Positions 4,704 to 57,580 of a stretch of DNA of 64,000 nucleotides are shown piece by piece. The position numbers were made by a program, and so were the translations under genes. This stretch comes from Verrucomicrobiota bacterium (GTDB lineage Bacteria > Verrucomicrobiota > Verrucomicrobiia > Limisphaerales > UBA11358). The notes under the pieces were generated by a model. It had not been told where the DNA came from. It saw only the letters and a list, made by a program, of their open reading frames with translations, and did no database searches. The DNA lies in NCBI GenBank assembly GCA_049516255.1, contig JBEKTH010000005.1, positions 7,798 through 71,797 of the forward strand. Reading direction: 5' to 3'. The first letter of the stretch is position 1. Every line of letters starts with the position of its first letter.

Positions 4704-5239
4704 AAGTAGCCACGGTCTGGCTGGGCGGCTGTTCCGGCTGTCACATGTCATTCCTCGACCTGGACGAGTTCCTCATCGAACTCGCGGGCAAAATTGATCT
4801 CGTTTACAGCCCGATCATGGACGTGAAGGAATATCCGAAAAATGTGGACGTCTGCCTCATCGAGGGGGCCATTTGCAACGAGGACAACCTCGAAATCCTT
4901 CACCAGATCCGCGCGCGAACGAAAGTGCTGGTCTCCTTTGGCGATTGCGCCGTCACCGGCAACGTGCCCGCCATCCGCAACCAGCTTGGCCTGCGCAACG
5001 ATGAGAATGTGCTCCAGCGCGCCTACATCGACAGCGCGCAGGACAATCCGTGCGTGCCGAAAGCCGATGGTATTGTGCCGGCCCTACTCAAACGCGTGAT
5101 GCCTGTGCATGAGGCGGTCTATGTCGAATACTTTTTACCCGGCTGCCCGCCGCCAGCGGATCGCATCAAGGCGCTGATGGTCCAGGTGTTGGGCGGCGCG
5201 ACGCCGAAACTGGAAGGAACGCAGTTGAAATTTGGCTGA
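4691..5239 (+). CDS. hoxY: [NiFe] hydrogenase small subunit HoxY
   Basis: Start at ATG 4691 (MERLKVATVWLGGCSGCHMSFLD) inside ORF 4292..5239, overlapping the hoxU stop. Carries the GGCSGC, GDCA and PGCPP cluster motifs. Confidence 0.88.
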   Translation: MERLKVATVWLGGCSGCHMSFLDLDEFLIELAGKIDLVYSPIMDVKEYPKNVDVCLIEGAICNEDNLEILHQIRARTKVLVSFGDCAVTGNVPAIRNQLGLRNDENVLQRAYIDSAQDNPCVPKADGIVPALLKRVMPVHEAVYVEYFLPGCPPPADRIKALMVQVLGGATPKLEGTQLKFG

Positions 5240-5296
5240 GGTAGGGCGCGTCACTCCGTGCGCGCCGCCTGCGGGCCGAGAACTGCCCGCCCTACC
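5240..5296. repeat. REP-like 57-nt structured element (outer stem GGTAGGGCG/CGCCCTACC with two internal GC hairpins) in the hoxY-hoxH spacer
   Basis: Hand inspection: 5240-5248 is complementary to 5288-5296. Internal pairs are GGCGCG..CGCGCC and GCGGGC..GCCCGC. Confidence 0.7.
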
Positions 5297-5307
5297 TGAA
5301 AAGATTT

Positions 5308-11889: not shown

Positions 11890-12016
11890 TGGACTCCACC
11901 AGACAGATTCCATCCGAATCCGCCATTGCGCACACCTTCTTTTGACAATTCCTGTGCAAAGATTGGCAACCATGGTTAAGGGCTGGGCTGAATTGGGTGT
12001 AGAATTGAAGTGGCGA

Positions 12017-14671
12017 ATGAAACCATCCCTCACCACTTCCGTTGCCGGGAATACCCGGCTGAAGCTCGCCGTTCGCGGCGCGGTGCAGGGCATGGGCTTC
12101 CGCCCCTTTGTCTTCCGGCTCGCCACCGGCCTCGGCCTGGCCGGCTGGGTCAGCAATTCTTCCCAGGGCGTCTTTATCGAAGCTGAAGGCCCGCGCGCGG
12201 CGCTCGAACAGTTTCTCCTGCGACTCGGGGCTGAAAAGCCCACGCACAGTTTCATCCAAAGCCTGGAAGCGTCATGGCTCGATGCGGTTGGCTTCAAGGC
12301 GTTCGAAATCCGGCCGAGCGAAGCCGGCGGCGACAAGACCGTCCTGGTGTTGCCGGACATCGCCACGTGCCCGGATTGCCTCCGTGAAATCTTCGATCCG
12401 AAAAATCGTCGCTACCGTTATCCGTTTACCAATTGCACCCACTGCGGCCCGCGCTTCAGCATCATCGAATCCTTGCCCTATGACCGCGCGAACACCTCGA
12501 TGAAAAAATTCACGATGTGCCCGCAGTGCCGGGCGGAGTACGATGACCCGCGCGACCGCCGGTTTCATGCGCAACCCAATGCCTGTCCGGTTTGCGGCCC
12601 GCGGTTGGAATTGTGGCAAGGTAGGACAGGCTTCCAGCCTGTTTCTGACTCCAATAAAAATGGAGACAGGCGCGACGCCTGTCCTACGGACAACGATGCC
12701 CTGCTCGCCGCCGCCCAGGCGATTCGTGAGGGAAAAATCGTCGCGGTCAAGGGACTGGGCGGTTTTCACCTGATGGCTGATGCGCGCAACGACAAGGCCA
12801 TTCAGTTGTTGCGCGAGCGCAAGCAGCGTGAGGAAAAACCCTTCGCTCTGATGTTCCCGTCACTGGAAAGCGTGAAAGCCGAATGTGAAGTCTCGCCGTT
12901 GGAAGAGCGGCTGCTGTGCTCGCCCGAAGCCCCGATTGTTTTGCTGAAGAGGTTGGTCCGCCCTCGCCCCGGCCCTCTCCCCCAGGAGAGGGAGAATCAT
13001 CTGCCGCTTGACCGCGAAAATGTGACTGCGGGCCATCCAGGCGAGGTAAAACAAATTGAGGCACACGAAGTCTGTTCCCTCTCCCCGGGGGAGAGGGTCA
13101 GGGCGAGGGCGGGTGTTGAACACAATTGCCTGCGGGTTGCTCCATCTGTCGCACCCAATAATCCTTATCTTGGCGCGATGCTGCCTTACACGCCGTTGCA
13201 CCATCTGCTGCTGGCTGAACTCGGTTTTCCGGTCGTTGCCACCAGTGGCAACCTGAGCGACGAACCGATTTGCACGGACGAACGCGAAGCCCTGGAGCGG
13301 CTCGGTGGCATCGCCGATGTTTTTCTCGTCCATGACCGTCCGATTATCCGGCACGTGGACGATTCGATGGTGCGTGTGATGCTCGACCGCGAACTCGTGC
13401 TGCGCCGCGCCCGCGGTTACGCCCCCTTGCCAATCATTCTGAACTCCGAACTCCGAACTCCGAACTCCGAAATTATTCTCGCCGTCGGCGCGCACTTGAA
13501 AAACGCCATCGCCTTGTCCGTCGGCCCGCAGGTTTTTATCAGCCAGCATATCGGTGATTTGGAGACGGAACAGGCGCATAACGCTTTCCGACGGGTCATC
13601 GCCGATTTTGAAAAACTCCACGACGCCAGGCCTCGAATCGTCGCCACCGATTTGCACCCGGATTATCTTTCGACCCGGTTTGCCCTGGAGATCGGTAGGG
13701 CTGAGCTGCCGCCCGGCCAGGACGCGCAGCAACGCGTCCCTGCCAGGGTTGGCGTTCAACACCACATCGCCCATGTCCTGTCCTGCATGGCGGAAAATGA
13801 ACTATCGCCCCCAGCGCTGGGTATTTCTTGGGACGGCACCGGTTATGGGCTGGATGGCACCATCTGGGGAGGTGAATTTTTCCTCGTCACGGACAAAACC
13901 GTCAAGCGCGCCGCTCACTTGCGTCCGTTCCGTTTGCCCGGTGGCGAGCAGGCGGTCAGGGAACCGCGCCGCACCGCGCTCGGTCTGCTTTATGAAATAT
14001 TCGGTGACGTCCTTTTCGAGCGGAACGACCTTGCGCCCGTCGCCGCCTTTGCTCGAACGGAACTGGCGGCGTTGAAAACGATGCTCGCGAAGCAGTTGAA
14101 TTCGCCCATCACTTCCAGCCTGGGCCGGTTGTTCGACGCGGTGGCCTCGCTCGTCAACCTCCGCCAGCAAATGCGGTTCGAAGGCCAGGCCGCCATGGAA
14201 CTGGAGTTTGCGCTCGATGGTGTGAATACGGATGAAGCCTATGAATTGCCGATTGCGGTTCGTGGGGATCGCCGCAGAGCGGGACAGGCTGCTCGCCCCA
14301 CCAAAACTCCGAACTCCGAACTCCGAACTCCGAACTCCGGAATGATTTTGGATTGGTCGCCGGCGGTGGAAGCGATCTTATCGGACGTGCAAAATGGTGT
14401 TGCCACTGGCAAAATATCGGCGAAGTTCCACAATGCGCTGGCGGAAGCCGTGGTGGCCGTGGCCGAAAGAATTGGTGAGCGGCGTGTGGTGTTAAGCGGC
14501 GGATGCTTTCAAAATCGCTATTTGACCGAACGGACGGTGCGGCGTTTGCAAGCAGAGGGCTTCCAGCCATATTGGCACCAGCGCATCCCCCCCACTGATG
14601 GCGGGATTGCCCTCGGCCAAATTGTCGCTGCCTTTCGCGTGCAGCATGAAATCGTAAATCAAAAATCATAA
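12017..14671 (+). CDS. hypF: Carbamoyltransferase HypF, carrying several in-frame repeat-derived insertions
   Basis: Acylphosphatase-like VQGMGFRPFV, two zinc-finger pairs (CPDC..CTHCGPRFS, CPQC..CPVCGP), YrdC-like VKGLGGFHL, and a Kae1-like C-terminal half. Start set at ATG 12017 because ORF-track start 11681 would overlap hypA. Confidence 0.9.
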   Translation: MKPSLTTSVAGNTRLKLAVRGAVQGMGFRPFVFRLATGLGLAGWVSNSSQGVFIEAEGPRAALEQFLLRLGAEKPTHSFIQSLEASWLDAVGFKAFEIRPSEAGGDKTVLVLPDIATCPDCLREIFDPKNRRYRYPFTNCTHCGPRFSIIESLPYDRANTSMKKFTMCPQCRAEYDDPRDRRFHAQPNACPVCGPRLELWQGRTGFQPVSDSNKNGDRRDACPTDNDALLAAAQAIREGKIVAVKGLGGFHLMADARNDKAIQLLRERKQREEKPFALMFPSLESVKAECEVSPLEERLLCSPEAPIVLLKRLVRPRPGPLPQERENHLPLDRENVTAGHPGEVKQIEAHEVCSLSPGERVRARAGVEHNCLRVAPSVAPNNPYLGAMLPYTPLHHLLLAELGFPVVATSGNLSDEPICTDEREALERLGGIADVFLVHDRPIIRHVDDSMVRVMLDRELVLRRARGYAPLPIILNSELRTPNSEIILAVGAHLKNAIALSVGPQVFISQHIGDLETEQAHNAFRRVIADFEKLHDARPRIVATDLHPDYLSTRFALEIGRAELPPGQDAQQRVPARVGVQHHIAHVLSCMAENELSPPALGISWDGTGYGLDGTIWGGEFFLVTDKTVKRAAHLRPFRLPGGEQAVREPRRTALGLLYEIFGDVLFERNDLAPVAAFARTELAALKTMLAKQLNSPITSSLGRLFDAVASLVNLRQQMRFEGQAAMELEFALDGVNTDEAYELPIAVRGDRRRAGQAARPTKTPNSELRTPNSGMILDWSPAVEAILSDVQNGVATGKISAKFHNALAEAVVAVAERIGERRVVLSGGCFQNRYLTERTVRRLQAEGFQPYWHQRIPPTDGGIALGQIVAAFRVQHEIVNQKS
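12620..12688. repeat. 69-nt palindromic element inside hypF, translated in frame as GRTGFQPVSDSNKNGDRRDACPT
   Basis: Outer stem GTAGGACAGGC (12621-12631) / GCCTGTCCTAC (12677-12687). Internal hairpins are ACAGGC-ttcca-GCCTGT and ACAGGCG-cga-CGCCTGT. Confidence 0.75.
12958..13112. repeat. MITE-like ~155-nt element with ~37-nt terminal inverted repeats inside hypF, translated in frame
   Basis: Left arm CCGCCCTCGCCCCGGCCCTCTCCCCCAGGAGAGGGAG (12958-12994). Right arm TCCCTCTCCCCGGGGGAGAGGGTCAGGGCGAGGGCGG (13076-13112). A related arm occurs at 37884-37926. Confidence 0.75.
13441..13474 (+). repeat. (GAACTCC)x4 heptanucleotide tract inside hypF (translated NSELRTPNSE)
   Basis: Four perfect GAACTCC units at 13441-13468 plus a partial unit. 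ATTCT occurs on both sides (13436-13440 and 13475-13479). Confidence 0.9.
13694..13744. repeat. Probable repeat-derived insertion in hypF (GGTAGGGCT... with a CAGGACGCG/CGCGTCCCTG hairpin), translated AELPPGQDAQQRVPA
   Basis: It starts like the 5240 element (GGTAGGGC) and contains a hairpin. It sits where HypF proteins normally run directly into the conserved GVQHHxAH motif. There is no second copy in this window. Confidence 0.4.
14261..14338. repeat. Composite insertion in hypF: a copy of a dispersed repeat (14261-14305) followed by five heptanucleotide units (AAACTCC plus GAACTCC x4, 14304-14338)
   Basis: The reverse complement of 14261-14305 matches 36917-36961 at 41 of 45 positions by hand alignment. 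The heptad tract is perfect after its first unit. Confidence 0.85.
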
Positions 14672-14681
14672 ATCGAAAATG
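14648..14681 (+). repeat. Solo heptad arm (AAATCGT AAATCAA AAATCAT AAATCGA) forming the hypF stop and the hypC start region
   Basis: Same unit family and orientation as the right arm of the four-helix-bundle cassette (43093-43128). The hypF TAA (14669-14671) lies inside it. Confidence 0.75.
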
Positions 14682-16030: not shown

Positions 16031-16135
16031 GAAACATTCAACATTCAACGTCCAACGCTCAACCTCGAACGAGTGGATTCGACGCGCCACCAGAATTGAA
16101 AGTTCGATGTTGAAGGTTGAAGGTTGAATGTTTTC
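16031..16135. repeat. Imperfect ~105-nt hairpin built from TTCAACN / GTTGAAG heptads between hypD and hypE
   Basis: Left arm 16031-16070 (GAAACATTCAAC ATTCAAC GTCCAAC GCTCAAC CTCGAAC). Right arm 16096-16135 (GTTCGAT GTTGAAG GTTGAAG GTTGAATGTTTTC). The terminal 12-13 nt pair almost perfectly. Confidence 0.8.
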
Positions 16136-27509: not shown

Positions 27510-30497
27510 ATGAAATCCGGCCATCAAATGGCAGCCCTGGTCATCGTGCTCGCTGGCTTTGCCGTCACCGCCCCGGCACAGACAACAATATTCGACGAGA
27601 ACTTTGACGGCGGATATACAGGCTATTTCGGCACCGGTTCGTATTCGGGTGGCAGCCCCACCGCCACCAACAACGCGGTGATCACGACGGGCGGAAATCC
27701 GGGCGGCGCCTGGCAGGAAACCATGACGGCCACGACCTGGAGCGACTATTACGGCGGGATGGTTCAGTTGATGACGGTTTCCGGGAACACGGATCCGAAC
27801 CCGTCGGACTATATATTGTCCTTCGATGCCAAAGGCAGCCAGGCGGCCACCATTCCGCTTACCATCCAGACCTGGCCGGGTGATTATTATGCCGGTTCGG
27901 GGCCGGTCATAAACGCAACGGTCAACGAGACATTGACGGCTGCCAATACCTGGCAGACTTTCAGCGTAAACCTCGGCAGCATCACGACGGCCCCGCCAAT
28001 CGGCGCAACCTGGCAGTTGATCTTCCCGCTCGATTCCTGGTTATGGAACGGCCCCGGCTTCACCGACACCCTGACCATCGACAATATCAAGCTGGTGAAT
28101 ATTGGTAATCCCATTGCGCTCACCTCCTCATTCAACCCTTCTTCGTACGGCGGCGGTGTCACGTTTACCGCCACGGTCCTGACCAACGGGATCGCTGCCG
28201 GCGATGCCACCGGTCAGGTGGTTTTTTCCTCTGCCAGCGGTCCGTTCAGCACCAACACGGTGATTGGCGGCGTCGCCACCAGTTCTCCGATTACCAATCT
28301 CCCGTCGGGGACGGATGTGATTACCGCGACTTACTCCGGCGGCAACTATCCGGGCAGCGCCAATACGCTCAACCAACTCGTCGCCCCCGCCCCGGGCATC
28401 GCACAAAACAATCTTCCGATCTACACCGACAATCTGGTGAACGGATTTCAAAATTGGAGTGGGGCAACGGTGAATCTGACGAACACTTCGCCGGTTCATT
28501 CGGGCACCTATGCCATCAGTGTTACCGATGGCGGCAACTACCAGGCGCTGGTTTTTGAGCATCCGGACTTCAATACCGGCCTCTACAACTATTTCAGTTT
28601 TTGGATCAATGGCGGCAGCTCTGGCGGACAAAAGGTGCAAATATGGGGATTGCTGGATGGCACCAATCAGTCGGCCTATTCCCTGGGCGCATTGCCGGCC
28701 AACACCTGGCAGCAGGTGACCATTCTGCTCGCCTCCCTGGGCGTGGGCCACAAGCCGAATTGCACCGGCTTCGAGATTCAGGGCAACGATGGCGGCGCGG
28801 CCCAACCGACTTTTTACGTGGATGATGTCCAACTGGGAGCCGCGCCGGCGCCGGCCACGGTCCACCTGGGGGTTGACGCGGGGCAGGCCTTGCAAACCGT
28901 GGATGCGCGCCAGTTCGGACTCAACACCGGCACCTGGGACGACAGTCTGACCAATGCCCAAACGTTGCCAGAGTTTGAAGCCAGCGGTTGTTTGAACTTG
29001 CGCTGGCCGGGTGGTTCAACTTCCGATCAATACCATTGGGCCGGTGATCCGACCGGGAATGCCACTTTTCGCAACATCGCCACCAATCTGGGCGCCCAGG
29101 TTTTCACCACGGTCAATTACGGCACCGGCACGGCCGGTGAGGCGGCCGCCTGGGTGATCTCGGCCAACCAAACCAATCATTGCGGTTTCACGTATTGGGA
29201 AATTGGCAATGAATGCTATGGCACGTGGGAAACCGATTCCAATGCGGTCCCTCATGATCCTTACACGTATGCCACCAACGCAGCGGCTTACATTCAGCAA
29301 ATGAAGGCGGCTTACCCGGCCGTACCCATTCATGTGGGCATTGTCGTCGCGCCGGGAGAAGGAAGCTATTCCAACAACGCGACGCATTTTGCCATCAACC
29401 CACGCACGGGAACGACCAACTATGGCTGGACGCCCATCGTCTTGTCCGAGTTGAAAACCCTTGGAGTGATGCCCGATTTCCTCATTTACCATTTTTACTG
29501 GCAATACACCACCTATGGCTGGACGCCTTACTCGGAATCCGAAGACAGCGACGCCCTTCTGTTGCAGGTGGCCGGCAACCCGTGTCCCGTGGTGTGGAGC
29601 GACTGGGCCAGCGCCGCCGCCAACCTGCGCCAGCAAATCAGCGATTACCTCGGACCCGCCGGCAGCAACATCGAACTGTGTGTGACTGAGAACAACAGCG
29701 ACGCCGGGGCCGTGGGCCGGCAATCCACCAGCCTGGTCAACGCCCTTTACCTCGCCGACAGCACCAGCCAGCTCATGAAAACCGAATTCCGATCCTATCT
29801 CTTTTGGGATTTCCAAAATGACGAACCGGGGGCGGGCGGCGATTATGACCCGACGATCTATGGCTGGCGGGGGGTTGGTGATTACGGGATCGTGAATGGG
29901 CCAAGCACCCTGTATCCCACCTTTTACGCCGAAAAATTACTTCAATATTTTGCGCGGCCCGGCGATTCCGTCCTCAATGGCACCAGCGATTCGCTCCTGC
30001 TTTCCGCCTATGCCGTTCATCGCACCAACGGCGCCCTTACGCTGCTCGTCATCAACAAGGACATGACCACGAACCTCAATGCGCAAATCGGGCTGACCAA
30101 TTTTGCGCCATGGACCACCGCGACGATTCAATCCTACGGCATCCCGCAGGATCAGGCGGCGCAAAACAATGCCGGGGCGGCACAGCAGGATATTGCGACG
30201 ACGAATTTCCCGACCGCCGGCACGAACTTCACCTATTCGTTTCCACCCTTGTCACTGACGCTCTTCACGTTTGAACCGGAAGCTTCGACGCTCTCCGTGT
30301 CGGGCCTCCAGCCAGGAGAGGTACAACTGCTGCTGCAAGGCCAGCGCGGCACGCCTTATGTCATTCAAAATTCGCCGGATTTGACGACGTGGACCGCCAT
30401 CTCCACCAACACGCTCGTGGGGAGCACTTCGAACATCACCATCCTGGTTTTACCGGGTTCTCCGCAACAGTTTTACCGTGCTGTTTGGCAACCTTGA
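27510..30497 (+). CDS. Secreted clan GH-A glycoside hydrolase with N-terminal CBM-like and Ig-like modules and a C-terminal ~70-aa beta domain
   Basis: Signal peptide, LRWPGGSTSDQYHW, YWEIGNECYGTWE (acid/base Glu) and LCVTENNSD (nucleophile Glu). Paralog of 38010..40319. Confidence 0.7.
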   Translation: MKSGHQMAALVIVLAGFAVTAPAQTTIFDENFDGGYTGYFGTGSYSGGSPTATNNAVITTGGNPGGAWQETMTATTWSDYYGGMVQLMTVSGNTDPNPSDYILSFDAKGSQAATIPLTIQTWPGDYYAGSGPVINATVNETLTAANTWQTFSVNLGSITTAPPIGATWQLIFPLDSWLWNGPGFTDTLTIDNIKLVNIGNPIALTSSFNPSSYGGGVTFTATVLTNGIAAGDATGQVVFSSASGPFSTNTVIGGVATSSPITNLPSGTDVITATYSGGNYPGSANTLNQLVAPAPGIAQNNLPIYTDNLVNGFQNWSGATVNLTNTSPVHSGTYAISVTDGGNYQALVFEHPDFNTGLYNYFSFWINGGSSGGQKVQIWGLLDGTNQSAYSLGALPANTWQQVTILLASLGVGHKPNCTGFEIQGNDGGAAQPTFYVDDVQLGAAPAPATVHLGVDAGQALQTVDARQFGLNTGTWDDSLTNAQTLPEFEASGCLNLRWPGGSTSDQYHWAGDPTGNATFRNIATNLGAQVFTTVNYGTGTAGEAAAWVISANQTNHCGFTYWEIGNECYGTWETDSNAVPHDPYTYATNAAAYIQQMKAAYPAVPIHVGIVVAPGEGSYSNNATHFAINPRTGTTNYGWTPIVLSELKTLGVMPDFLIYHFYWQYTTYGWTPYSESEDSDALLLQVAGNPCPVVWSDWASAAANLRQQISDYLGPAGSNIELCVTENNSDAGAVGRQSTSLVNALYLADSTSQLMKTEFRSYLFWDFQNDEPGAGGDYDPTIYGWRGVGDYGIVNGPSTLYPTFYAEKLLQYFARPGDSVLNGTSDSLLLSAYAVHRTNGALTLLVINKDMTTNLNAQIGLTNFAPWTTATIQSYGIPQDQAAQNNAGAAQQDIATTNFPTAGTNFTYSFPPLSLTLFTFEPEASTLSVSGLQPGEVQLLLQGQRGTPYVIQNSPDLTTWTAISTNTLVGSTSNITILVLPGSPQQFYRAVWQP

Positions 30498-30686: not shown

Positions 30687-33590
30687 TTATTGCACGCCGA
30701 CGCGGTAGAAAACGGAATCGCCGTTGTTGGCCGTGGTGTCCGTGTAGCTGGTGGTGATGGGTTGGCCGGTAATATTGGTTTGAATGGTCGTGAACGCCGG
30801 TTGCGCGCCCAAATCCGTGCCGCGTTGGAGGTAATAAGTTATACCGCTGACGCTTTCCCAGGTGACGGTGGTGCCGGAAACTCCGTTGGGTACGATAGAC
30901 GTCAACTTCAGGACGGACGTGGGGTCCAGGGGATCCGTGCCGGCAATCCATTCCTGCCAGTTGTTCATGCCGTCATCGTCCGAATCAATGTAATCGGCTG
31001 AACCATCGAGCGGCAGGCCGTAACGCCGAAGCCACGGAATGGGGATGGGCAGCCCCAGGTTCGAACCCTGAAACTCATAAGCGCCCATGTCCTCGATGCC
31101 TCCGACGATGCGCGGGTTGCCGTCCAGGTCCGTGAGGATGATCGGGGCCGTGGGCGCAAGGTTGATGCCGCCATTGATGGTCGGCGAATTGGTTTGCTGG
31201 TGATAATCGCCGGTGGCCGGATTCACGAAGACCGGCGGGTTGGTGAAGCTGTCCACGTCGGGTGCGGCCGGGACCGTGCAGCAGTAGCTGAAGGAGCCGC
31301 CGGACCAGTTGGAACTGGCGGGCGCAACATTGTAATAAACGATGGTGTTGTAATGCGAACAGCCAAACGTTCCGCCGCTACTGATGGCTGCCGTATTGCT
31401 GCAAACCGTGCAATTGTAAAGCGTGGCATTCTCGGCGCCGCCGCCATTGGTGGCGGTATTTCCGTACAGAAGGCAGTTGTACAATATCCCGCTCAGGGCG
31501 CCACCGCCATTGCCGGACGAGTTGGCAGTGAAGATGCAGTTGGAGGACATCCCGGCGTTGGCGCCGCCGCCGTCGCTGCCGGAATTTTCCGACAACGTGC
31601 AGAAATAATTTGTGGATTGATAGGCCCCGCCGGAGTTGCCGTGATTGTGGCTCACGATGCAGTAATTCAACGCGCTTTGGTAGGCGCCGCCGCCGGAAGA
31701 AGCGGCCGTGTTCGAGATGACCAGGCAGTTGAACAGCGTGCTTTGGTAGGCGCCGCCGCCGGGACCGCCGGTGCTTGAATTCGTGGAGATTGTGCAATTA
31801 TAGAGTGTGCTCCGATAAACGCCGCCGGCGCCGTAATAGGACCAATTGGCCGTGATCACGCAGTTGGAGGCCGTTGACTGGTACAGTCCGCCGCCAAAGT
31901 GTCCACCGGCATGCCAGGAATTGTTCACGACCGTGCTGTTGTAAAGCACCGCCATGGCCGCACCACCGCCATACGCCGCGTTGTTGTTCGTAAGCATGCT
32001 GTTGTAAATTGTGCCACCGAAGACGCCGCCACCGAAACCGTAACTGGGACCGGCGTTATCCCCGACCACAATGCAATTGGACACCACCCCGCCGGGGGCG
32101 CACCAGGCGCCGCCACCGCTCTGTTCGTTCGTGATGTCTCCGCCAATCACCCCGCTGCCATTCCCATTGGTCAGCGTAAATCCCATCAGGACGGCGTTGG
32201 TGCCGACATAAACGCAGCGTGTCTGCGATCCGCCCGCAATCACCGCCGCGCGCGGTCCTCCCGAACTGACCAGCGTGATGGCGTTGGTCAACGCCACGCG
32301 ATTGGTTTCCGCGCCGTAAACCACCGCGCCGCTGTTCATGTACACGCCGTCACCGGCAATGACAAATTCCCCCGCCTGGGCTGAGGCGACGGCGTCCTGC
32401 AGGTTGGTGGCCGCCGTCGGCCAGTTCGTGTAAGGCGCGACGGGATTGGTGCTGGTCAAACTGACATAGTGCGCGGTTCCCGAAAACGGCGATTGGTTTT
32501 CATAAGCGCCCATGTCCACGGCGGCGCCGACGATGCGCGGGTTGCCGTCCAGGTCCGTGCTGTTGGTGGCGACGGCATTGTTGCCGGCGTCAATGCAGCG
32601 GGACCATGGCGTCAGATGAAAATCGCCGGCATCCGGGTTCACAAAGCCGGGCGCGTTGCTGATGCTGTTGTTCGGCACGGTGGGGTTGCCGAGTCCCAGA
32701 GTCGTGCAGCAATTGGTCAGGCGGCACATATAACAGTCGGCGTAGATCCCGTTGACGTTGTAATAAATGATGCTGTTGTTCAGGTTGCAATCGTCCGCTG
32801 CGCCCAGAATGCGCGAGAAATTTCCCGCGAGCGTGCAATTGTACAGGGTGCTGAGGTAGGCGGCGCCGCCGTCGCTGCCGGTGACATTGTTGGTGCTGCC
32901 GTTGCCGGTGAGGAGGCTGTCATAGACTGTGCAATTGCCAATGCCGCCGCCGTTGGCCGCGACATTGTTGCTGACAATGCAATTGACCAGTGTGCTGCCG
33001 TAGGCTCCACCGCCTGACCCGCCGCTCATTGCGATATTTCCGCTCAGGACACAATTCACCAGCAGACTGTTGTTGAACGATTCGCTGCCCGCGCCGTTGC
33101 CGGCGGACGCGTTGCCGGTGATGACGCAGTTGCTGATGACGCAAAACGTTTCCGAAATCACACCGCCGCCGTAGCCGGAACCCGACGCGCCGTTCGTCAA
33201 CGTGAAACCGGACAGGGAGGAAAATTCAGTCAGATAAACACAACGGACCGCGCTGGGCCCGTTCGTGGTGCCGGGAACCTGATAGCCCATAATGAAAGTC
33301 ACCGCGGGGCCATTCACACTTTGCAGCGTCGCCTCGTTGATGACATGAACCCGGTTGGATCCGGAAAACGAGTCGCCGCCGTATTGATAAATGCCATTCG
33401 TAACCAGGACGAGGTCGCCGGCGCCGGTGGTACTCATCGCATCTTGAATGTTTGTCGCCGCCGTGGCCCAGCTCGTGTACGGCACAACGGGGTTCGTGCC
33501 GCCGGCGTCCACATAATGCGTCGTGATCGCCGGGGCGGTATAAACCAACAGCACGGAACAAGCTGCCGCCAGGGGCAACGTGGATTTCAT
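30687..33590 (-). CDS. Secreted right-handed beta-helix protein (choice-of-anchor-Q-like repeats)
   Basis: Signal peptide and many GGGAY..S.L.NC beta-helix repeats. Two DLDGNPRIVG..DMGAYE motifs, DSDDDGMNNWQEWIAGTDP, and a C-terminal domain ending FYRVGVQ. Confidence 0.7.
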   Translation of the reverse strand: MKSTLPLAAACSVLLVYTAPAITTHYVDAGGTNPVVPYTSWATAATNIQDAMSTTGAGDLVLVTNGIYQYGGDSFSGSNRVHVINEATLQSVNGPAVTFIMGYQVPGTTNGPSAVRCVYLTEFSSLSGFTLTNGASGSGYGGGVISETFCVISNCVITGNASAGNGAGSESFNNSLLVNCVLSGNIAMSGGSGGGAYGSTLVNCIVSNNVAANGGGIGNCTVYDSLLTGNGSTNNVTGSDGGAAYLSTLYNCTLAGNFSRILGAADDCNLNNSIIYYNVNGIYADCYMCRLTNCCTTLGLGNPTVPNNSISNAPGFVNPDAGDFHLTPWSRCIDAGNNAVATNSTDLDGNPRIVGAAVDMGAYENQSPFSGTAHYVSLTSTNPVAPYTNWPTAATNLQDAVASAQAGEFVIAGDGVYMNSGAVVYGAETNRVALTNAITLVSSGGPRAAVIAGGSQTRCVYVGTNAVLMGFTLTNGNGSGVIGGDITNEQSGGGAWCAPGGVVSNCIVVGDNAGPSYGFGGGVFGGTIYNSMLTNNNAAYGGGAAMAVLYNSTVVNNSWHAGGHFGGGLYQSTASNCVITANWSYYGAGGVYRSTLYNCTISTNSSTGGPGGGAYQSTLFNCLVISNTAASSGGGAYQSALNYCIVSHNHGNSGGAYQSTNYFCTLSENSGSDGGGANAGMSSNCIFTANSSGNGGGALSGILYNCLLYGNTATNGGGAENATLYNCTVCSNTAAISSGGTFGCSHYNTIVYYNVAPASSNWSGGSFSYCCTVPAAPDVDSFTNPPVFVNPATGDYHQQTNSPTINGGINLAPTAPIILTDLDGNPRIVGGIEDMGAYEFQGSNLGLPIPIPWLRRYGLPLDGSADYIDSDDDGMNNWQEWIAGTDPLDPTSVLKLTSIVPNGVSGTTVTWESVSGITYYLQRGTDLGAQPAFTTIQTNITGQPITTSYTDTTANNGDSVFYRVGVQ

Positions 33591-35399: not shown

Positions 35400-36851
35400 T
35401 CAGGAGCCGGGAGAAAAGTGCAGGATGGTCGCCGAGGCGGCCGCCACCTGAACCGTCAGGTTGCCGGAATCAACGTCTTTGATTTTTTCCCACTGGCCCG
35501 ACCAGGTTCCCTGCGGGTCAATGGCAGCGCCACCGAGCATCACGCCCGTTTTGGCGGCCACATCCTGATTTGTCTGCACCAGATCCATTTGTTGCCATGT
35601 GCCTGAGCCCGAGCCGGGGAGCAGCCGGAGGGAAACCGACGCCGTTTGTGCCTCGTCGCCGTAGCTCTTGTTGATCAGGGTCACATAAACAGAGTTGTCG
35701 CGGTCGCGATAGGCGTAGGCATTGAAATTAAACCTGGGTGCCGTTTGAATGTTCACGCCGAGGGGTCGTCCCTGTGCACCCTGGCTGAAAGCCAGCAAGG
35801 CATAGGCTTGCGGTCGCATGGCAATGCCATGGCCATCCGGCTGATGCACGAACGCGGCATAGTTCGCGGCACCAAACCCGCCATCCCGCCCCACCTTTTC
35901 TCCGGTGTGATAATTCACGCCGAGGATGTGGTGCGCCGCCCACCAATGGGTGCAATCCAGCGCCCACAAGGTGGAAGCGTAGGTGTCGCTCGAATCTTTG
36001 GCCCCGCCATTGTAGCAACTGTTCATCTCATCTATCCGGTAAGGCACCCCCTGGGTGGCCAGCACCGCGCCGACCTGGGCATAGTCTCGTTCGTATTCGC
36101 CATCGAGACGGTTGGAAAGAAAGCGGGCCCGGGACGCGGGCGGGTCTTTTTCAGCCGCCCGGCCAGAGCCCAGAAAATAATAGTGATCGCTTGCCATCGC
36201 CAGGTGTCCGTCCGCAAACAGGACCTTGGCCAGGTTCAACGCATAGCTTCCGCTGGCGCTCGGTCCGTCAATCTGCGCCTCAGGTACGGCCTTCAGAATG
36301 GCGTCATAGTGGGGTTTCCATTGTGCAAAAAAGGTCTCAAAGGTTTTGAAATAAAAATTGGGCTCGTTGCCGATGGAATAGCAGTCGAGGGCATCGGTAT
36401 CATGGGCTGCAATATAACCGGCCAGTCGCGCCGATTCGGACGGATCGCCATTTTTCAGGCGGAACGAATAAATCACCGTTACCCCGGCTGCCCGCGCGAA
36501 TTTAAACAGCATGTCGATGTCCTTTTCCTGCGGCACCGGGATGCGCGGATCGTCCACCGCATTGGCGCCGACGCGCAGGCTTTTGATGCCGAGGGTCTGG
36601 AAGGCATTGACCAGCGCCTGATCGTCGGGGTCAAAATAGTATCGCCCGTTCGCGGGCAGCAGCATGGACATCTCGTAGCTCAGGCCCAGAAAACGGGGTG
36701 CCAGTTCGGGACCATTGCCATCGGTCGTCACGGTGATGGCCACAGGCTGGGTCTGGGCCGTGGCGACATGTGGAATCAGCAGCGTCAGGGCGAGCAACGG
36801 AAGCGAGAAAAGAAATTTCCCCGGGCACTGGTTCAAAAAAAGGCGGTTCAT
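35400..36851 (-). CDS. Secreted glycoside hydrolase, GH79-like
   Basis: Signal peptide, RFLGLSYEMS, LRVGANAVDD, YSIGNEPNFY. The family assignment is tentative. Confidence 0.55.
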   Translation of the reverse strand: MNRLFLNQCPGKFLFSLPLLALTLLIPHVATAQTQPVAITVTTDGNGPELAPRFLGLSYEMSMLLPANGRYYFDPDDQALVNAFQTLGIKSLRVGANAVDDPRIPVPQEKDIDMLFKFARAAGVTVIYSFRLKNGDPSESARLAGYIAAHDTDALDCYSIGNEPNFYFKTFETFFAQWKPHYDAILKAVPEAQIDGPSASGSYALNLAKVLFADGHLAMASDHYYFLGSGRAAEKDPPASRARFLSNRLDGEYERDYAQVGAVLATQGVPYRIDEMNSCYNGGAKDSSDTYASTLWALDCTHWWAAHHILGVNYHTGEKVGRDGGFGAANYAAFVHQPDGHGIAMRPQAYALLAFSQGAQGRPLGVNIQTAPRFNFNAYAYRDRDNSVYVTLINKSYGDEAQTASVSLRLLPGSGSGTWQQMDLVQTNQDVAAKTGVMLGGAAIDPQGTWSGQWEKIKDVDSGNLTVQVAAASATILHFSPGS

Positions 36852-36918
36852 GGGCCGTGATTTTAAATGAGGCTGTCTCTGGTGACAATTATGATAATTT
36901 TAAGGTGGTGGCACAGTT

Positions 36919-37009
36919 TGGTGGGGCAAGCAGCCTGTCCCGCTCTGCGGTGATCCTCGCGAGCCGTCTTGCCGCGCAAAGGCCGACGCGTCAGTCGCCT
37001 CGCCCCACC
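36919..37009. repeat. ~90-nt hairpin-type dispersed repeat (outer stem GGTGGGGCAAG / CTCGCCCCACC)
   Basis: Its left half (36917-36961) is about 91 percent identical to the reverse complement of hypF 14261-14305. Confidence 0.75.
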
Positions 37010-37070: not shown

Positions 37071-37616
37071 ATGGAACAATCATCGCATCAAAAAATGTCT
37101 TTACCGTCGCCCGTGTCCGGGCCGGAAATGGCCCCCCCAAAAACCGGTTACGGGGACGCGGAGGTGCAATTCGGCATGGGATTGAAGTTTGCGGCCGACC
37201 CGGGGGCGGCCCAGGATTACCGGCAGGCCGCAGAGTGGTACCACAAGGCGGCGGAACAGAACCATTCCATGGCACAATTCAATCTCGGAGTGATGTATGC
37301 CCGGGGACAGGGTGTCAACCGGGACGCCGCCCAATCGGCGATGTGGTTTGGCAAGGCTGCGCACCTGGGAGACGCCGGAGCCCAGTATCATCTGGGGGAC
37401 AGTTGTCACCGTGCCAGCATTGTTCAGGCACCGGCGGAGGCCGCTGAATCAAGGATTGAAGCTTACAAATGGTATCGTCTGGCCGCCGCGCAAGACTACC
37501 GCAACTCGATCATGGCCTGGTCCAATCTGACGCTCAACATGAGCCGGGCGGATGTTGCGGCCGGCGATCAGCGCGTGGCTGAATTTGAGATCACCAAGAC
37601 GGCAGTCGGTGGTTAG
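37071..37616 (+). CDS. Sel1-repeat (SLR) protein
   Basis: Start at ATG 37071 inside ORF 36969..37616. Repeats such as AAEWYHKAAEQNHSMAQFNLGVMYARGQGV and AMWFGKAAHLGDAGAQYHLG. Confidence 0.8.
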   Translation: MEQSSHQKMSLPSPVSGPEMAPPKTGYGDAEVQFGMGLKFAADPGAAQDYRQAAEWYHKAAEQNHSMAQFNLGVMYARGQGVNRDAAQSAMWFGKAAHLGDAGAQYHLGDSCHRASIVQAPAEAAESRIEAYKWYRLAAAQDYRNSIMAWSNLTLNMSRADVAAGDQRVAEFEITKTAVGG

Positions 37617-37664
37617 TCGTCAGTGGTCGGCAACCAAGGCTGGGGCGTTTCCAATTATAACGTA

Positions 37665-37930
37665 GCAAGTAGCGCAGGCTTTCCAGCCTGCGGGTTTTGG
37701 CGACTTTCCAGTCGCCACGTTTATGCAGAAAAACACGGGACCAGAAAGTCCCACAGACCCGCAGACAAGAATGTTGCATTGTAGAAACCATCGCCCGACA
37801 CTGCAACGGTCGTTTCCCTCGCCCCGCAGCAAAGCGCGGGGAGAGGATGTCGCGCAGCGACCGGAGAGGGGATTTCAACACCACCTCGCCCCGGCCCTCT
37901 CCCCCAACTGCGTTTGCGGAGAGGGAGTTC
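37665..37930. repeat. Cluster of short hairpin repeats
   Basis: Twin TTTCCA-loop hairpins: GCAGGC-tttcca-GCCTGC and TGGCGAC-tttcca-GTCGCCA at 37672-37718. Also CCTCGCCCCGC..GCGGGGAGAGG at 37816-37846 and CCCTCTCC..GGAGAGGG at 37884-37926. Confidence 0.7.
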
Positions 37931-38009
37931 AAATGGGGCGTCCTCAACTGTTTCGATGGTTTCTACAAACCAACAAGAATGTCCGCACTACATCAAAGCT
38001 GAAACCGCT

Positions 38010-40319
38010 CTAGGGCAGCCAGATTGCCCGCCAGAACTGCGTCGGGACGGATGGATTCACGGAATTGGTGATGTTCAGCGTACCGGCCAGGGGGGTGTTG
38101 GTGCTGATGGAGGTCCACGTAATCAGATTGGTTGAGTTCTGAATGACATAAGGAACACCAGCCTGACCCTGGAGTTGAAAGACGAACTGGCTGGCGGCCG
38201 GTGGGACCAGCAGGGCCAGCAAGGTTGCCGGTGCCGGTGAGAGCGACAGGATCGTGGCCGAGTACGGCGGGAAGGCGTAATTGAAGTTGGTGCTCGCGCC
38301 GGAAAAATTCGTCGTGGCGATGTCCTGCAAGGCGGGACTCCCGTTGGTTTCGGCAGCGTCATCCTGAGGGATTCCGTAAGAGTAAACCGTGCCGCTTGAG
38401 GCCGGAGTGAAGCCGGCCACGGCCACCTGACCCGTGGAAGTAAGGGACGGGTCCTTGTTGATGGCCAGCACCGTCAGGCTGCCATCCAGCCGCCGGACTG
38501 CATAAACCGAGAGCAGTGAGTAATCGCTGGTTGCCGTCAGCACGGTATCGCCGGGTTGAACGAAGTGTTGCATGAGTTTGAAGGTGTAGAACGTCGGATA
38601 GAGCGTGTTCAGGTTGCCGATGATGCCCAGGTCACCGTTGGTGCGCCAGCCGTAGAGCGAAGCCGAAAAGTCGCCGCTGGTGTCCGTGCCATTCCGCAGA
38701 TCCCACCAGACGAAGGAATTGAACTCCGTCTTCGTCAACTGCGCGAGGCTGTCCGCCAGATAAAGGCCGTTGACGAGGCTCGTGGATTGTTTGCCTTCCG
38801 GGCCGGAATCGGCATTGTTCTCCGTGGCCAGCAGTTGAATGTTGGTGCCCGGGCTGCCGATATAATCCGTGATTTGCTGGCGCAGACTGGCGGCGTCGGA
38901 GGCCCAGTTCGCCGAAGCCTGCAGCAGGGCCGAGTCGTTGTCCGAGCCGGATTCGGAATAAAAGTGGTCCACCAGAAAATCCGGCGTCACGCCGGATGAA
39001 CTCAAGGTGGCAAGCATCACGGGCGTCCAGCCATTGTGATAAACCCCTTCGCGCGAGTTATACGCCGGATGGCTGGTGTTGTTGACGTAACTGTCCTCGC
39101 CGGGCGCGGAGACCACGCCGACTATGATCGTTGGGTCCACGGCTTTCATCAAGCCGATGTAATTCGTGGCGCGCAAGGCATAGGTATAAGGGTCGTTGGG
39201 CACGGCGTTGCTGTCGGTTTCCCACGTGCCATAAACCTCGTTGCCAATCTCCCAATCCTTCAAGCCCAGCGGCGCAGTCCGCGAGATGCGGAGGAAATTT
39301 TTGCCATCGTCCGTCCCCAACGGTGCGGCGGCGCGCAACGAGGCCCAAACTCCCGCCGTCTGCCAGTTGATGCCATTGGCATCCAAGCCCAGGGACACCG
39401 TGCTGGCGGTGGTGGCATTGCAATAAGCCACCCAAGCGGCCGCCTCCTGCGGCGTGCCGGTGCCGTAGTTGACGGTGATGATGGTCTGGGCATTGACGCT
39501 GGCATTGGTGATGACGTGGATGAAATTGGCGAACGACGTTGCCCACTGCCAGGTGTTCGCCAACGTCGTGTTCGAGACCCAGTGGTATTGGTCGGAGAGC
39601 GAACCCCCCGGCAGGCGAAGGATGCGCGTGCCCAGCTGGTTGAGCAGCGAAACCGTCGTGGAGGTGTCGTAGTAACTGTCCCACGTGGCGGCGTTCAGTC
39701 CGAACCAGCGCGTGTCGGCGGTGCGGAGGGGCTGGCCGGCATTGATGGCAAAATGCGTCAATGTAGGCGGCGGCACGACGGCATTGAGCTGGATGTCATC
39801 CAGGTAGAAGGTGGATTCGGTCGAACCGGCAGCATCCTGAAGGGCGAAGCCGGTGAAGTCGTTCGTATTGGCCACGCCGAGGGCCGACAGGGAAACCGTG
39901 TATTGCTGCCAGCTGTTGGCCAACGGCGTCGCCAGATGATAGCGGGCGCTTTGCGTGCCCGAGCTCAGATTGCCATACAACTGGAGCTGTTGACCGCCGA
40001 CGGTTCCGCCATTGAGCCAGAAGCTGATGCTGGCAAACCCGGTGGTGGTCAGGCTGGAATGATTCAACTGAATACCGCCGTAGGCGTTGGTGATGGTGAC
40101 GCTGATGGAATGGCTGCTTCCGGTATAGACCGGTGAAGTATTGGCGTAGTTCAATGTGACATTATAGCTGCCGTCCGACCAGCCGTTGACCAGCGAATTG
40201 GTGTAAATGGCCATGTTGGTCTGGGCCAGGGACAACACCGGCACCGTCAGTGAAAAAGCCAGAATTAATTTCGAAATGGTCAGAGGGATTCCTCCCGGAA
40301 CCTGTTTTTGCGGAGTCAT
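38010..40319 (-). CDS. Secreted clan GH-A glycoside hydrolase, paralog of 27510..30497
   Basis: LRLPGGSLSDQYHW, DWEIGNEVYGTWETDSNAVPNDPYTYA, LLATENNADSG. The C-terminal domain ends FWRAIWLP. Confidence 0.7.
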   Translation of the reverse strand: MTPQKQVPGGIPLTISKLILAFSLTVPVLSLAQTNMAIYTNSLVNGWSDGSYNVTLNYANTSPVYTGSSHSISVTITNAYGGIQLNHSSLTTTGFASISFWLNGGTVGGQQLQLYGNLSSGTQSARYHLATPLANSWQQYTVSLSALGVANTNDFTGFALQDAAGSTESTFYLDDIQLNAVVPPPTLTHFAINAGQPLRTADTRWFGLNAATWDSYYDTSTTVSLLNQLGTRILRLPGGSLSDQYHWVSNTTLANTWQWATSFANFIHVITNASVNAQTIITVNYGTGTPQEAAAWVAYCNATTASTVSLGLDANGINWQTAGVWASLRAAAPLGTDDGKNFLRISRTAPLGLKDWEIGNEVYGTWETDSNAVPNDPYTYALRATNYIGLMKAVDPTIIVGVVSAPGEDSYVNNTSHPAYNSREGVYHNGWTPVMLATLSSSGVTPDFLVDHFYSESGSDNDSALLQASANWASDAASLRQQITDYIGSPGTNIQLLATENNADSGPEGKQSTSLVNGLYLADSLAQLTKTEFNSFVWWDLRNGTDTSGDFSASLYGWRTNGDLGIIGNLNTLYPTFYTFKLMQHFVQPGDTVLTATSDYSLLSVYAVRRLDGSLTVLAINKDPSLTSTGQVAVAGFTPASSGTVYSYGIPQDDAAETNGSPALQDIATTNFSGASTNFNYAFPPYSATILSLSPAPATLLALLVPPAASQFVFQLQGQAGVPYVIQNSTNLITWTSISTNTPLAGTLNITNSVNPSVPTQFWRAIWLP

Positions 40320-42694: not shown

Positions 42695-42730
42695 GTATTT
42701 ATGATTTACGATTTATAATTTATGATTGCG
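42695..42730. repeat. Left heptad arm of the four-helix-bundle cassette
   Basis: Its reverse complement, CGCAATCATAAATTATAAATCGTAAATCATAAATAC, matches the right arm at 27 of 31 aligned positions. Confidence 0.85.
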
Positions 42731-43069
42731 AGCCGTTCGTCTCGTGGCGCTGAAAATTTTGGTCAACTCAACTGCTTCCGTCTGCAATTCACCGACCTGT
42801 TTTGGCGGGACCAACGCGGCTCGTTTTGCCAATTCAATCCACAAATCCGTTTCGTCAGCTTCCTCCAGAACGATTGTAATTTTGTTTATGAAATCCGCGC
42901 GCGATTTTCCGCGCAGCGCCGAGCGATAATTCGACGCCTCCGAACAGCCGCTGCGCGCAATCTGATCGGCAATCGTTCTTCCTGATGGTTTGTTTGGAAG
43001 GGCGTCGGCAAATTTGAGAACCCGGACGGCGAATTGAATGGTCCTTTCTTTAAGTTCAATTGGATTCAT
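42713..43069 (-). CDS. Four-helix-bundle protein (23S rRNA intervening-sequence protein family)
   Basis: 118 aa: ERTIQFAVRVLKFADALP ... IADQIARSGCSEASNYRSA ... FINKITIVLEEADETDLWIEL. The last codons (RNHKL) and the stop lie in the heptad arm. Confidence 0.8.
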   Translation of the reverse strand: MNPIELKERTIQFAVRVLKFADALPNKPSGRTIADQIARSGCSEASNYRSALRGKSRADFINKITIVLEEADETDLWIELAKRAALVPPKQVGELQTEAVELTKIFSATRRTARNHKL

Positions 43070-43092: not shown

Positions 43093-43128
43093 AAAAATCA
43101 TCAATTATAAATCATCAATCACAAATGA
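43093..43128. repeat. Right heptad arm of the four-helix-bundle cassette
   Basis: AAAAATCATCAATTATAAATCATCAATCACAAATGA, ending 2 nt below the nifJ stop codon (complement of 43131-43133), i.e. immediately downstream of nifJ. Confidence 0.85.
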
Positions 43129-57390: not shown

Positions 57391-57517
57391 CTACCGGAAC
57401 TGCAAATAAACCCGGCTGCCGTCGCTGCGCACGCCGCCGGTCTGATTCTCCGTCAGAAACAGCCGCGAAGCCTCCACCTTGCCCGTCGACAGAATGTAGG
57501 CGCGCACGGCCTTGGCG
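57391..57517 (-). pseudogene. Orphan 3' fragment duplicated from the DUF748 gene
   Basis: 57393-57517 is identical to 59703-59827 except for 2 mismatches. It would encode AKAVRAYILSTGKVEASRLFLTENQTGGVRSDGSRVYLQFR plus a stop. The upstream part of ORF 57391..57798 has no counterpart. Confidence 0.75.
57393..57517. repeat. 125-nt direct repeat, copy 1
   Basis: Hand alignment with 59703-59827 gives 123 of 125 identical. Confidence 0.9.
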
Positions 57518-57580
57518 TTTTCGGGCGATTCCGGGCGCGGTTGACTGACCGCTGCCAGTGACGGGCCGGTCACCACAAGG

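Follow-up and report, generated by a model that had tools for sequence, protein, structure and literature searches.

Repeat-derived segments carried in frame by the hypF gene of a soil verrucomicrobium

Introduction

The hypF gene at positions 12017 to 14671 of a 64,000-nucleotide (nt) stretch of a Verrucomicrobiota bacterium (contig JBEKTH010000005.1; the whole stretch is called the window below) raises the question of how a gene for an enzyme of predicted hydrogenase maturation comes to hold five repeat-like segments between its conserved motifs while its reading frame stays open. A first-pass annotation, made from the letters of the window, had proposed that these segments, (a) to (e) in 5' to 3' order, are repeat-derived insertions, all in frame and free of stop codons. 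The five segments are present at about the positions given there, gaps in alignments to solved HypF structures and counts between conserved anchors agree with them, and members of each repeat family occur at unrelated loci in other genomes. It is very probable that the linkers and surface loops of this HypF have been colonised by small non-autonomous repeats of the host: GTAG-tagged repetitive extragenic palindromic (REP) doublets, an element like a MITE (miniature inverted-repeat transposable element), and heptanucleotide (heptad) arrays with REP-like cores.

Size and position of the inserts

The size of each insert was taken as the number of residues between conserved anchors, counted in 148 HypF genes from the DNA, with about 100 distant HypFs of other phyla providing the usual spacing (Table 1). 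Over the five sites the window HypF has about 115 additional residues relative to these proteins and to two solved structures, and its alignment to both structures (PDB 3VTH and 4G9I) breaks at these same five sites. The excess of roughly 130 residues given in the first-pass annotation is therefore real, but somewhat smaller by anchor counts; a 7-residue, heptad-derived tail at the C-terminus, which lies beyond the 115, moves the total nearer 130. The gain is very uneven: site (b) contributes the most, and site (c), with a tract of 31 nt, yet adds only about 5 residues. Some of the borders have also changed. Those of (b) were corrected from 12958-13112, those of (e) from 14261-14338, and tract (c) ends at 13471 rather than 13474, whereas those of (a) and (d) stand.

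Site (a) falls in the stretch that joins the second Zn finger to the YrdC-like domain, and site (c) in the one that joins the YrdC-like to the Kae1-like domain; both are outside Pfam matches. At sites (b), (d), and (e) a Pfam domain match is interrupted, each time where the length of HypFs from other phyla also varies. In those other HypFs the five segments are not conserved, although the loops are at times enlarged by unrelated sequence, and thus the five positions are generally permissive, in keeping with the original suggestion of insertion into tolerant places. Predicted peptides that derive from the inserts or span their borders include TGFQPVSDSNK, ENHLPLDR, AELPPGQDAQQR, and TPNSELR.

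The gene that holds these segments is, as judged from its sequence, an intact and selected carbamoyltransferase gene, with a predicted role in hydrogenase maturation. An upstream start at 11972, which is the one chosen by gene callers, would give a HypF of 899 residues. Five Pfam models (Acylphosphatase, zf-HYPF, Sua5_yciO_yrdC, HypF_C, and HypF_C_2, with zf-HYPF matched twice) score above their curated cut-offs and in canonical order, so that the four-part architecture of acylphosphatase, two Zn-finger motifs, YrdC-like domain, and Kae1-like domain is present. Matches to the solved HypFs have E values of 4e-190 (3VTH) and 1e-139 (4G9I). The CxxC cysteines and the motifs QHHxAH, WDGTGYG, GGCFQN, and DGG are without variation in 62 relatives, and the ratio of nonsynonymous to synonymous changes (dN/dS) in the core of the gene is 0.09-0.14 against six relatives, indicating strong purifying selection; the view that selection keeps this HypF functional is thus borne out. 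At least 8 contigs, from at least 4 independent samples, carry an identical protein, and therefore the sequence is not an artefact of assembly. The nearest named relatives are Verrucomicrobiota/Limisphaerales metagenome-assembled genomes (MAGs), and the host is a free-living soil bacterium, a peat-soil verrucomicrobium, with source samples JGI 3300018038, 3300018034, and 3300017948 and ENA ERZ27249970. Upstream of hypF, on the minus strand, are hypB and hypA, and downstream are hypC, hypD, and hypE; a few kb upstream are hoxF/U/Y/H-like genes, which belong to a group 3 [NiFe]-hydrogenase.

Table 1. Coordinates of hypF, its inserts, and related repeats in the window, with the spacing of HypF anchors at each site. 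TRF, Tandem Repeats Finder; ORF, open reading frame.
Feature	Position	Strand	Description	Anchor spacing (window; usual)	Gain (residues)
hypF coding sequence	12017..14671	+	ORF ending 14671; ATG at 12017 gives 884 aa
Insert (a), inverted GTAG-tagged REP doublet, REPIN-like	12620..12688	+	69 nt; encodes aa 202-224, GRTGFQPVSDSNKNGDRRDACPT	30; 15	+15
Insert (b), MITE-like	12959..13111	+	153 nt, 51 codons; family-based borders	69; 13-16	+54
Insert (c), heptad array (GAACTCC)4.4	13441..13471	+	TRF, 100% matches; encodes NSELRTPNSE	17; 12	+5
Insert (d), REP-like doublet	13694..13744	+	51 nt (GGTAGGGC... / ...GGACGCGCAGCAACGCGTCCCTGCC); encodes GRAELPPGQDAQQRVPA	29; 15	+14
Insert (e) left, REP-like core	14256..14305	+	core and heptads encode ...VRGDRRRAGQAARPTK-TPNSELRTPNSG	43; 16-20 (whole of site e)	+23 to +27 (whole of site e)
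Insert (e) right, heptad array (AACTCCG)5	14305..14339	+	TRF, 100% matches
(AAATCAT)-type heptad tract	14649..14680	+	TRF; last hypF codons (EIVNQKS), stop codon, and hypC start
Intergenic GTAG-REP doublet	5239..5297	.	GGTAGGGCG...CGCCCTACC; hoxY-hoxH spacer; same kind as (a) and (d)
Intergenic copy of (e) core	36917..36966	-	90% reverse-complement match; upstream of gene 35400-36851
Intergenic partial copy of (b) left arm	37883..37906	+	within a cluster of small hairpins

Larger loops exist in another HypF. In an unrelated lineage, represented by the MAG 'bacterium Yes70-08' (L043, JASEGY010000100.1), the anchor spacing reaches 34 (a), 67 (c), 80 (d), 39 (at about aa 672), and 75 (e) residues. 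The position near aa 672 (window numbering) is a sixth hot spot, which is empty in the window and is filled in 18 of 120 relatives, for example by RREGAPNSTRGACAP.

The repeat families

Element (a), described in the first-pass annotation as a palindrome, is an inverted REP doublet. Two 22-nt units of the form GTAGGACAGGC-N5-GCCTGT, at 12621-12642 on the plus and 12666-12687 on the minus strand, fold into a single long hairpin (-39.4 kcal/mol; z = -5.4 versus shuffled sequences), whose 23-bp composite stem is maintained in 6 alleles with one compensatory pair. At least 120 stretches of reference genomes contain the unit GTAGGACAGGC-N5-GCCTGTC, often as inverted pairs, where about 17 matches would be expected by chance; its hosts are Verrucomicrobia, Acidobacteria, Planctomycetes, Cyanobacteria, and Chloroflexi. 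Only 29 of 128 copies (23%) are within long ORFs, versus 51% of random positions, and thus the family is mainly extragenic and the hypF copies belong to an intragenic minority. Members of this minority in other genomes are in frame in DnaE, GlnRS, Mfd, and ValRS.

In L212 an IS200-like Y1 transposase (Y1_Tnp, 24.7 bits with a cut-off of 23) has units of family (a) on both sides, and so has a homologue of it in L175, an arrangement that RAYT-mobilised REPs would be expected to show. In L212 (positions 1525-2136; Verrucomicrobia MAG VFJO01000280.1) the valS frame runs free of stops through the REP units and the Y1 transposase segment between them, so that a complete REP-transposase unit resides within the ORF of a tRNA synthetase. 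The 64-kb window itself has neither a Y1 transposase nor a REP-associated tyrosine transposase (RAYT).

Element (d) is built similarly, from a left unit GGTAGGGC and a right unit that reads GCAGGGAC in the window and GTAGGGAC in relatives. It has a 7-bp stem, GGACGCG/CGCGTCC, and a weak fold, only slightly better than that of shuffled sequences (z = -1.6). Copies of this family occur at four other loci; they include an in-frame copy at the same position of a PurL-like protein in two other MAGs. A further GTAG-REP doublet, at 5239-5297, sits in the extragenic position usual for its kind, and near copies of it are found close to the hyp genes of relatives (L004, L072, and L083). It was the only result kept from a generic hairpin scan of the window, in which the number of hairpins (34) was barely higher than in a shuffle control (14).

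Element (b) has inverted arms of about 35 bp, at approximately 12959-12996 and 13076-13111, each of which contains a small hairpin; the centre between them is variable. As the first-pass annotation had noted, these arms are inverted repeats (z = -4.3 for the fold versus shuffles). The arm is present in at least 120 stretches, nearly all of them from Verrucomicrobia, and 16 paired elements of 137-248 nt have been recovered. Full-length homologues with 70-76% identity reside at loci other than hypF. Most copies of the family are extragenic, and one is in frame in a HoxF/NuoF-like protein. The internal region varies strongly among copies. Element (b) thus has terminal inverted repeats, a small size, no ORF of its own, and multiple dispersed copies. 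However, none of the 16 copies has a target-site duplication, as the flanks prolong the palindrome (acgct...agcgt) rather than forming direct repeats, and no parent or autonomous insertion sequence (IS) was found. For these reasons, the element is called MITE-like.

The arms of the hypF element (12960-12994 and 13075-13110) give sub-threshold matches of 23 and 21 bits to the Rfam family whalefall-1 (gathering score, 37). This metagenome-derived motif may in fact be an arm of a REP or MITE. Apart from whalefall-1, the hypF inserts gave only a spurious microRNA match in Rfam, and neither was retained. The partial left arm in the window lies in the intergenic region 37616-38010, where many small hairpins of several kinds (for example GCAGGCTTTCCAGCCTGC and GGCGACTTTCCAGTCGCC) give the look of a repeat nest.

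Elements (c) and (e) contain heptads. The (GAACTCC) tract (c), correctly recognised in the first-pass annotation, is identical in the three closest alleles; element (e) is, as stated there, a dispersed repeat joined to five heptads. The fold of (e) is not significant versus shuffles. Its core also occurs in the hypF genes of L083 and L098. (AACTCCG)n arrays are present in at least 120 stretches across phyla, and heptad arrays elsewhere in other genomes number at least 133, with 3-20 units each. Here too, in-frame copies within genes are a minority: 33 of 105 arrays (31%) are in long ORFs, including those of ValRS, ArgJ, and ThiE, versus 47% of random positions. In relatives, sites (c) and (e) are often composites of a heptad array, a REP-like core, and an inverted heptad array, and site (c) may instead be occupied by other heptads. 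The C-terminal tail EIVNQKS, encoded by a tract of another heptad type, is found in only part of the relatives. The claim that (b), (e), and the heptads have relatives elsewhere in the window holds for the arm of (b) and the core of (e) (Table 1), but for the heptads only loosely, through arrays of related AAC type at 16033, 16109, 27237, and 30598.

Two other heptad structures lie in the window. The hypD-hypE spacer holds a palindrome (16032-16133) with arms of (AACATTC)n and its complement (GAAGGTT/GAATGTT)n, which are 88% complementary; this architecture of heptads around a REP-like core matches the fillers of loops (c) and (e) in relatives. Inverted (AAATCAT)n arrays at 42697-42727 and 43095-43126, of the same heptad type as 14649-14680, bracket a small gene on the minus strand (42713-43069, 118 aa) that is richer in A+T, lies between two longer genes, and looks like an inserted cassette.

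Divergence and recombination of hypF alleles

The hypF alleles of relatives indicate what has happened to the inserts since their arrival. Among 8 alleles bearing the MITE-like element, mean pairwise divergence at codon positions 1, 2, and 3 is 0.14, 0.08, and 0.41 in the gene core, as expected of a selected protein, but 0.43, 0.40, and 0.39 in the centre of the element. Thus, the centre diverges at the rate of synonymous sites, and there is no selection on its peptide. In the left arm the corresponding values are 0.02, 0.10, and 0.05, and in the right arm 0.09, 0.11, and 0.11; the arms are conserved at the nucleotide level while the centre drifts neutrally. Codon periodicity is likewise lacking in (a) and (d), and the dN/dS-like ratios of the inserts are 0.4-0.8 versus 0.1 in the core. 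Over the same 8 alleles, stop codons are absent from the element in the hypF frame and number 10 in each of the alternative frames. This fits translation, although it was by way of intact proteins that the alleles were found.

The occupants of the five loops turn over. In the 120 closest relatives (68-88% identity; 790-953 aa), each loop holds 9-15 unrelated types of filler of up to about 60 residues. The version found in the window at sites (a), (b), (c), (d), and (e) is present in 39, 48, 40, 53, and 44 of these proteins, respectively, and about half of the close relatives have no MITE-like element, with a short heptad linker in its place. The patterns of presence in the three closest alleles are mutually incompatible: of the inserts in the window, L081 has (a) and (d), L082 has (a) and (b), and L083 has (e). 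Sliding identity to L082 is 96-100% over 12377-13230 and falls to 54-73% over 14184-14671; similar switches occur with other alleles, and the drops often begin at insert sites. The alleles are therefore recombination mosaics, and the five-insert set of the window arose by the joining of segments, not through five hits within a single lineage. The picture of five independent insertions is to this extent incomplete: at site (b) the MITE alleles appear to go back to one insertion, and allele recombination built the combination. The accompanying calculation, in which five insertions in a row preserve the frame with a probability of (1/3)^5, is uninformative. Since out-of-frame insertions in a selected gene are never observable, it has no weight; the pattern reflects survivorship, not coincidence.

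Changes of frame at sites (a), (b), and (e) were seen in three relatives, of which one has an N-masked stretch and two are long-read MAGs. In the latter (L070, 3520-3680, and L072, 2420-2560) the hypF frame changes exactly at sites (a) and (b), in L072 within an (AAATCGC)n tract at site (b); in neither is a real frameshift allele distinguishable from a sequencing indel. Given these sources, the frame-shifted alleles were dropped as evidence of out-of-frame insertion or of phase variation.

Explanations for the inserts

The membership of the inserts in repeat families, their positions, and the purifying selection on the hypF core together argue strongly for colonisation of linkers and loops by repeats whose normal habitat is intergenic. 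Copies that enter a gene would persist only if their length is a multiple of 3, if they are free of stops in the frame that they hit, and if they are harmless to folding and catalysis. The survivors would then be transcribed and translated as additional, probably disordered, loops, with peptides that are unselected and palindromic arms that are maintained at the nucleotide level. Mobilisation would be due to RAYT-type or other transposases, and the inserts would be neutral for enzyme function. Homologous recombination between related lineages shuffles segments, giving each allele its own combination of fillers, and across the clade the outcome is the same five loops with many alternative occupants.

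Several points weigh against this interpretation. There is no second copy of (a), of (d), or of (GAACTCC)n in the 64-kb window, and the status of these three as repeats depends on copies in other genomes. None of the three closest alleles offers a clean empty site with a target duplication, because alternative alleles hold other repeats at the same spots. Placement at the surface was not obtained for sites (a) to (d) from an AlphaFold2 model made with an alignment of 62 close relatives, in which the shallow, insert-rich alignment gave a mean predicted local distance difference test (pLDDT) score of 48. Only the C-terminal domain of the model is confident; there, site (e) is a low-confidence excursion between two short strands, so that the model supports a disordered excursion at this one site, and sites (a) to (d) are placed by sequence alignment. 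That the inserts are translated is something we infer. Finally, simple tolerance does not account for how strongly the MITE arms are conserved at the nucleotide level.

This last point gives some room to the idea that the palindromes act at the level of nucleic acid and are kept for that reason rather than merely tolerated, a reading that seems improbable but worth weighing. The 33-bp stem, for example, could act in the mRNA as a site for RNase III or for ribosome pausing, tuning hyp expression or domain-wise folding, or the palindromes could be hot spots of DNA recombination. Divergence in the MITE arms is 3-8 times lower than at the synonymous sites of hypF, and this holds for all three codon positions. 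A younger age cannot account for this, since the adjoining centre has diverged like synonymous sites. The drops in identity between alleles that start at insert sites would also fit. Both long stems, (a) and (b), are retained in all alleles with one compensatory pair each, but most of the pairs never vary, and thus retention says little about structure. Moreover, the absence of the element from about half of the close relatives indicates that it is dispensable, and correction of one arm by the other could contribute to the conservation, as could conversion from copies elsewhere in the genome. A hypF-specific form of the right arm, CCCTGACCC, was considered, which would have excluded exchange with other copies; this was rejected, as 12 other loci carry CCCTGACCC.

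A broader proposal is of about the same low likelihood: that the five loops are true hot spots of insertion, in which repeats home into earlier repeats and heptads or REP hairpins serve as landing pads, and that the stems are in addition selected as mRNA or DNA signals. If so, coding regions would hold maintained 'repeat cassettes', whose turnover would give rise to new peptide sequence, and the in-frame heptad arrays would be a previously uncharacterised, cross-phylum class of cassette.

It is much harder to believe that the insert peptides have gained functions of their own, as interaction surfaces for HypE or HypC or as regulatory tails, and that they owe their retention to protein-level selection. 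The fillers are widespread at sites (a), (b), (d), and (e), as the counts above indicate, and stops never interrupt them. However, (a), (b), and (d) have no codon-position signature of protein-level selection, the dN/dS-like ratios of the inserts are well above that of the core, each loop accepts 9-15 unrelated fillers, and the same peptides appear in unrelated enzymes.

Phase variation through the two heptad tracts is similarly unlikely, and if anything a little more so. As contingency loci, gain or loss of a 7-nt unit would shift the frame and toggle HypF and hydrogenase maturation; perfect tandem arrays of 4.4 and 5 units within an ORF, and the frame change in a heptad tract of L072, are what one might expect. 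But the arrays are short, the three closest alleles all agree in unit number, indel errors are common in long-read MAGs such as L072 and L070, and the same arrays are present in the genes for ValRS, ArgJ, and ThiE, which are single-copy housekeeping genes whose switching would be lethal.

Nothing but the oddity of the sequence favours removal of the inserts before or after translation, as introns or inteins, or their origin as assembly artefacts, and both can be set aside with little hesitation: Rfam gives no family at the gathering score and no intron family at E <= 1, the MITE centre is stop-free in the hypF frame only, Pfam finds no intein domain, the inserts at 5-54 aa are far too short for one, and they recur, with divergence, in dozens of relatives as well as in the identical proteins from independent samples.

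Comparison with known systems

Colonisation of genes by in-frame repeats has precedents. GTAG- and CGTC-tagged intragenic REPs have been catalogued, with Opitutus terrae, a verrucomicrobium, and Rickettsia conorii holding the most (Di Nocera et al. 2013, PMC3733652). These are often dimers, encode 20-30 residues, sometimes occur twice in a gene, and are argued to occupy linkers and loops; the HypF of O. terrae, Oter_4514, is itself listed with a REP, but only at residues 3-9, and RAYTs are also described (PMC3733652). The REPs of the window hypF resemble those of the catalogue in being GTAG stem-loops, inverted dimers, and in frame, and the host belongs to the same phylum as O. terrae. Unlike the catalogued cases, a single gene here has five inserts of at least four element classes, all internal, and its loops are re-used with 9-15 alternative fillers across the clade, with evident shuffling of alleles. 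The heptad arrays and the 153-nt MITE-like element fall outside the catalogue.

The Rickettsia palindromic elements (RPEs) treated by Ogata et al. in 2000 and by Claverie and Ogata in 2003 are reportedly 100-150 nt in length, in frame, and translated, and are thought to be located at the protein surface without loss of function; they are also cited in PMC3733652. Palindromic repeats in frame in protein genes are thus common to both systems. However, RPEs are CGTC-tagged or unrelated in sequence and belong to a reduced, obligate intracellular genome, while several co-existing families are found here in a free-living soil host.

REPIN and RAYT systems were reportedly described by Nunvar et al. 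in 2010 and Bertels and Rainey in 2011. REPINs are extragenic by definition. Like a REPIN, element (a) has a pair of REPs in inverted orientation, which fold into a single long hairpin, and its family flanks a Y1 transposase at two loci in other genomes; unlike a REPIN, it is intragenic, the window has no RAYT, and its mobilisation is something we infer.

Intragenic MITEs have been reported in Coxiella burnetii (PMC5896051), and prokaryotic MITEs have been reviewed (PMC10969869). Element (b) shares with bacterial MITEs long terminal inverted repeats, a non-coding nature, many copies of similar length, and an occasional in-frame copy, but its internal variability is closer to that of REP dimers with variable spacers, and it differs from a classical MITE in having no target-site duplication or parent IS that could be found.

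The heptanucleotide repeats of cyanobacteria, the short tandemly repeated repetitive (STRR) sequences, reportedly go back to Mazel in 1990. Heptameric repeats are over-represented in bacteria yet little studied, with GGGAATC types in Xanthomonas and Nostoc (PMC4692102); a literature search for heptanucleotide repeats in Verrucomicrobia gave nothing. The arrays described here are like the known ones in forming dispersed 7-nt arrays with a preference for about 4 units, mostly intergenic and near gene ends. They differ from the STRR and GGGAATC types in that the unit AACTCCG is not G-rich, in that they enter reading frames as 7-residue peptide repeats, and in that, in relatives, they make up the arms of heptad-REP-heptad palindromes. 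Taken together, tolerated in-frame invasion is already known from Rickettsia and Opitutus and is unusually dense and variable here. What stands out are the five inserts of at least four classes, the shared hot-spot loops, the in-frame heptads in housekeeping genes across phyla, and the conserved MITE arms.

Other repeats in the window

Three further repeats were noted. A 135-nt direct repeat (57393-57527 and 59703-59837; 96% identity) has its copies separated by 2.3 kb, close to the ends of two adjacent minus-strand genes. Between 29094-30441 and 38066-39491 there are long inverted matches with 70-79% identity, which point to a pair of paralogous genes that have diverged and are oppositely oriented, with about 8-10 kb between them. 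Internal periodic repeats of 63 nt are present in the gene at 30687-33590.

Implications

The hypF locus amounts to a natural tolerance map of a four-domain maturation enzyme, of use in the engineering of HypF and in judging odd length variants among metagenomic proteins. Repeats within genes also affect how genes are called, how homology is scored, and how structures are predicted. The REPs, MITE-like elements, and heptads of soil Verrucomicrobia and several other phyla routinely end up in, and are presumably translated as part of, housekeeping enzymes such as DnaE, aminoacyl-tRNA synthetases, a PurL-like protein, ArgJ, and ThiE.

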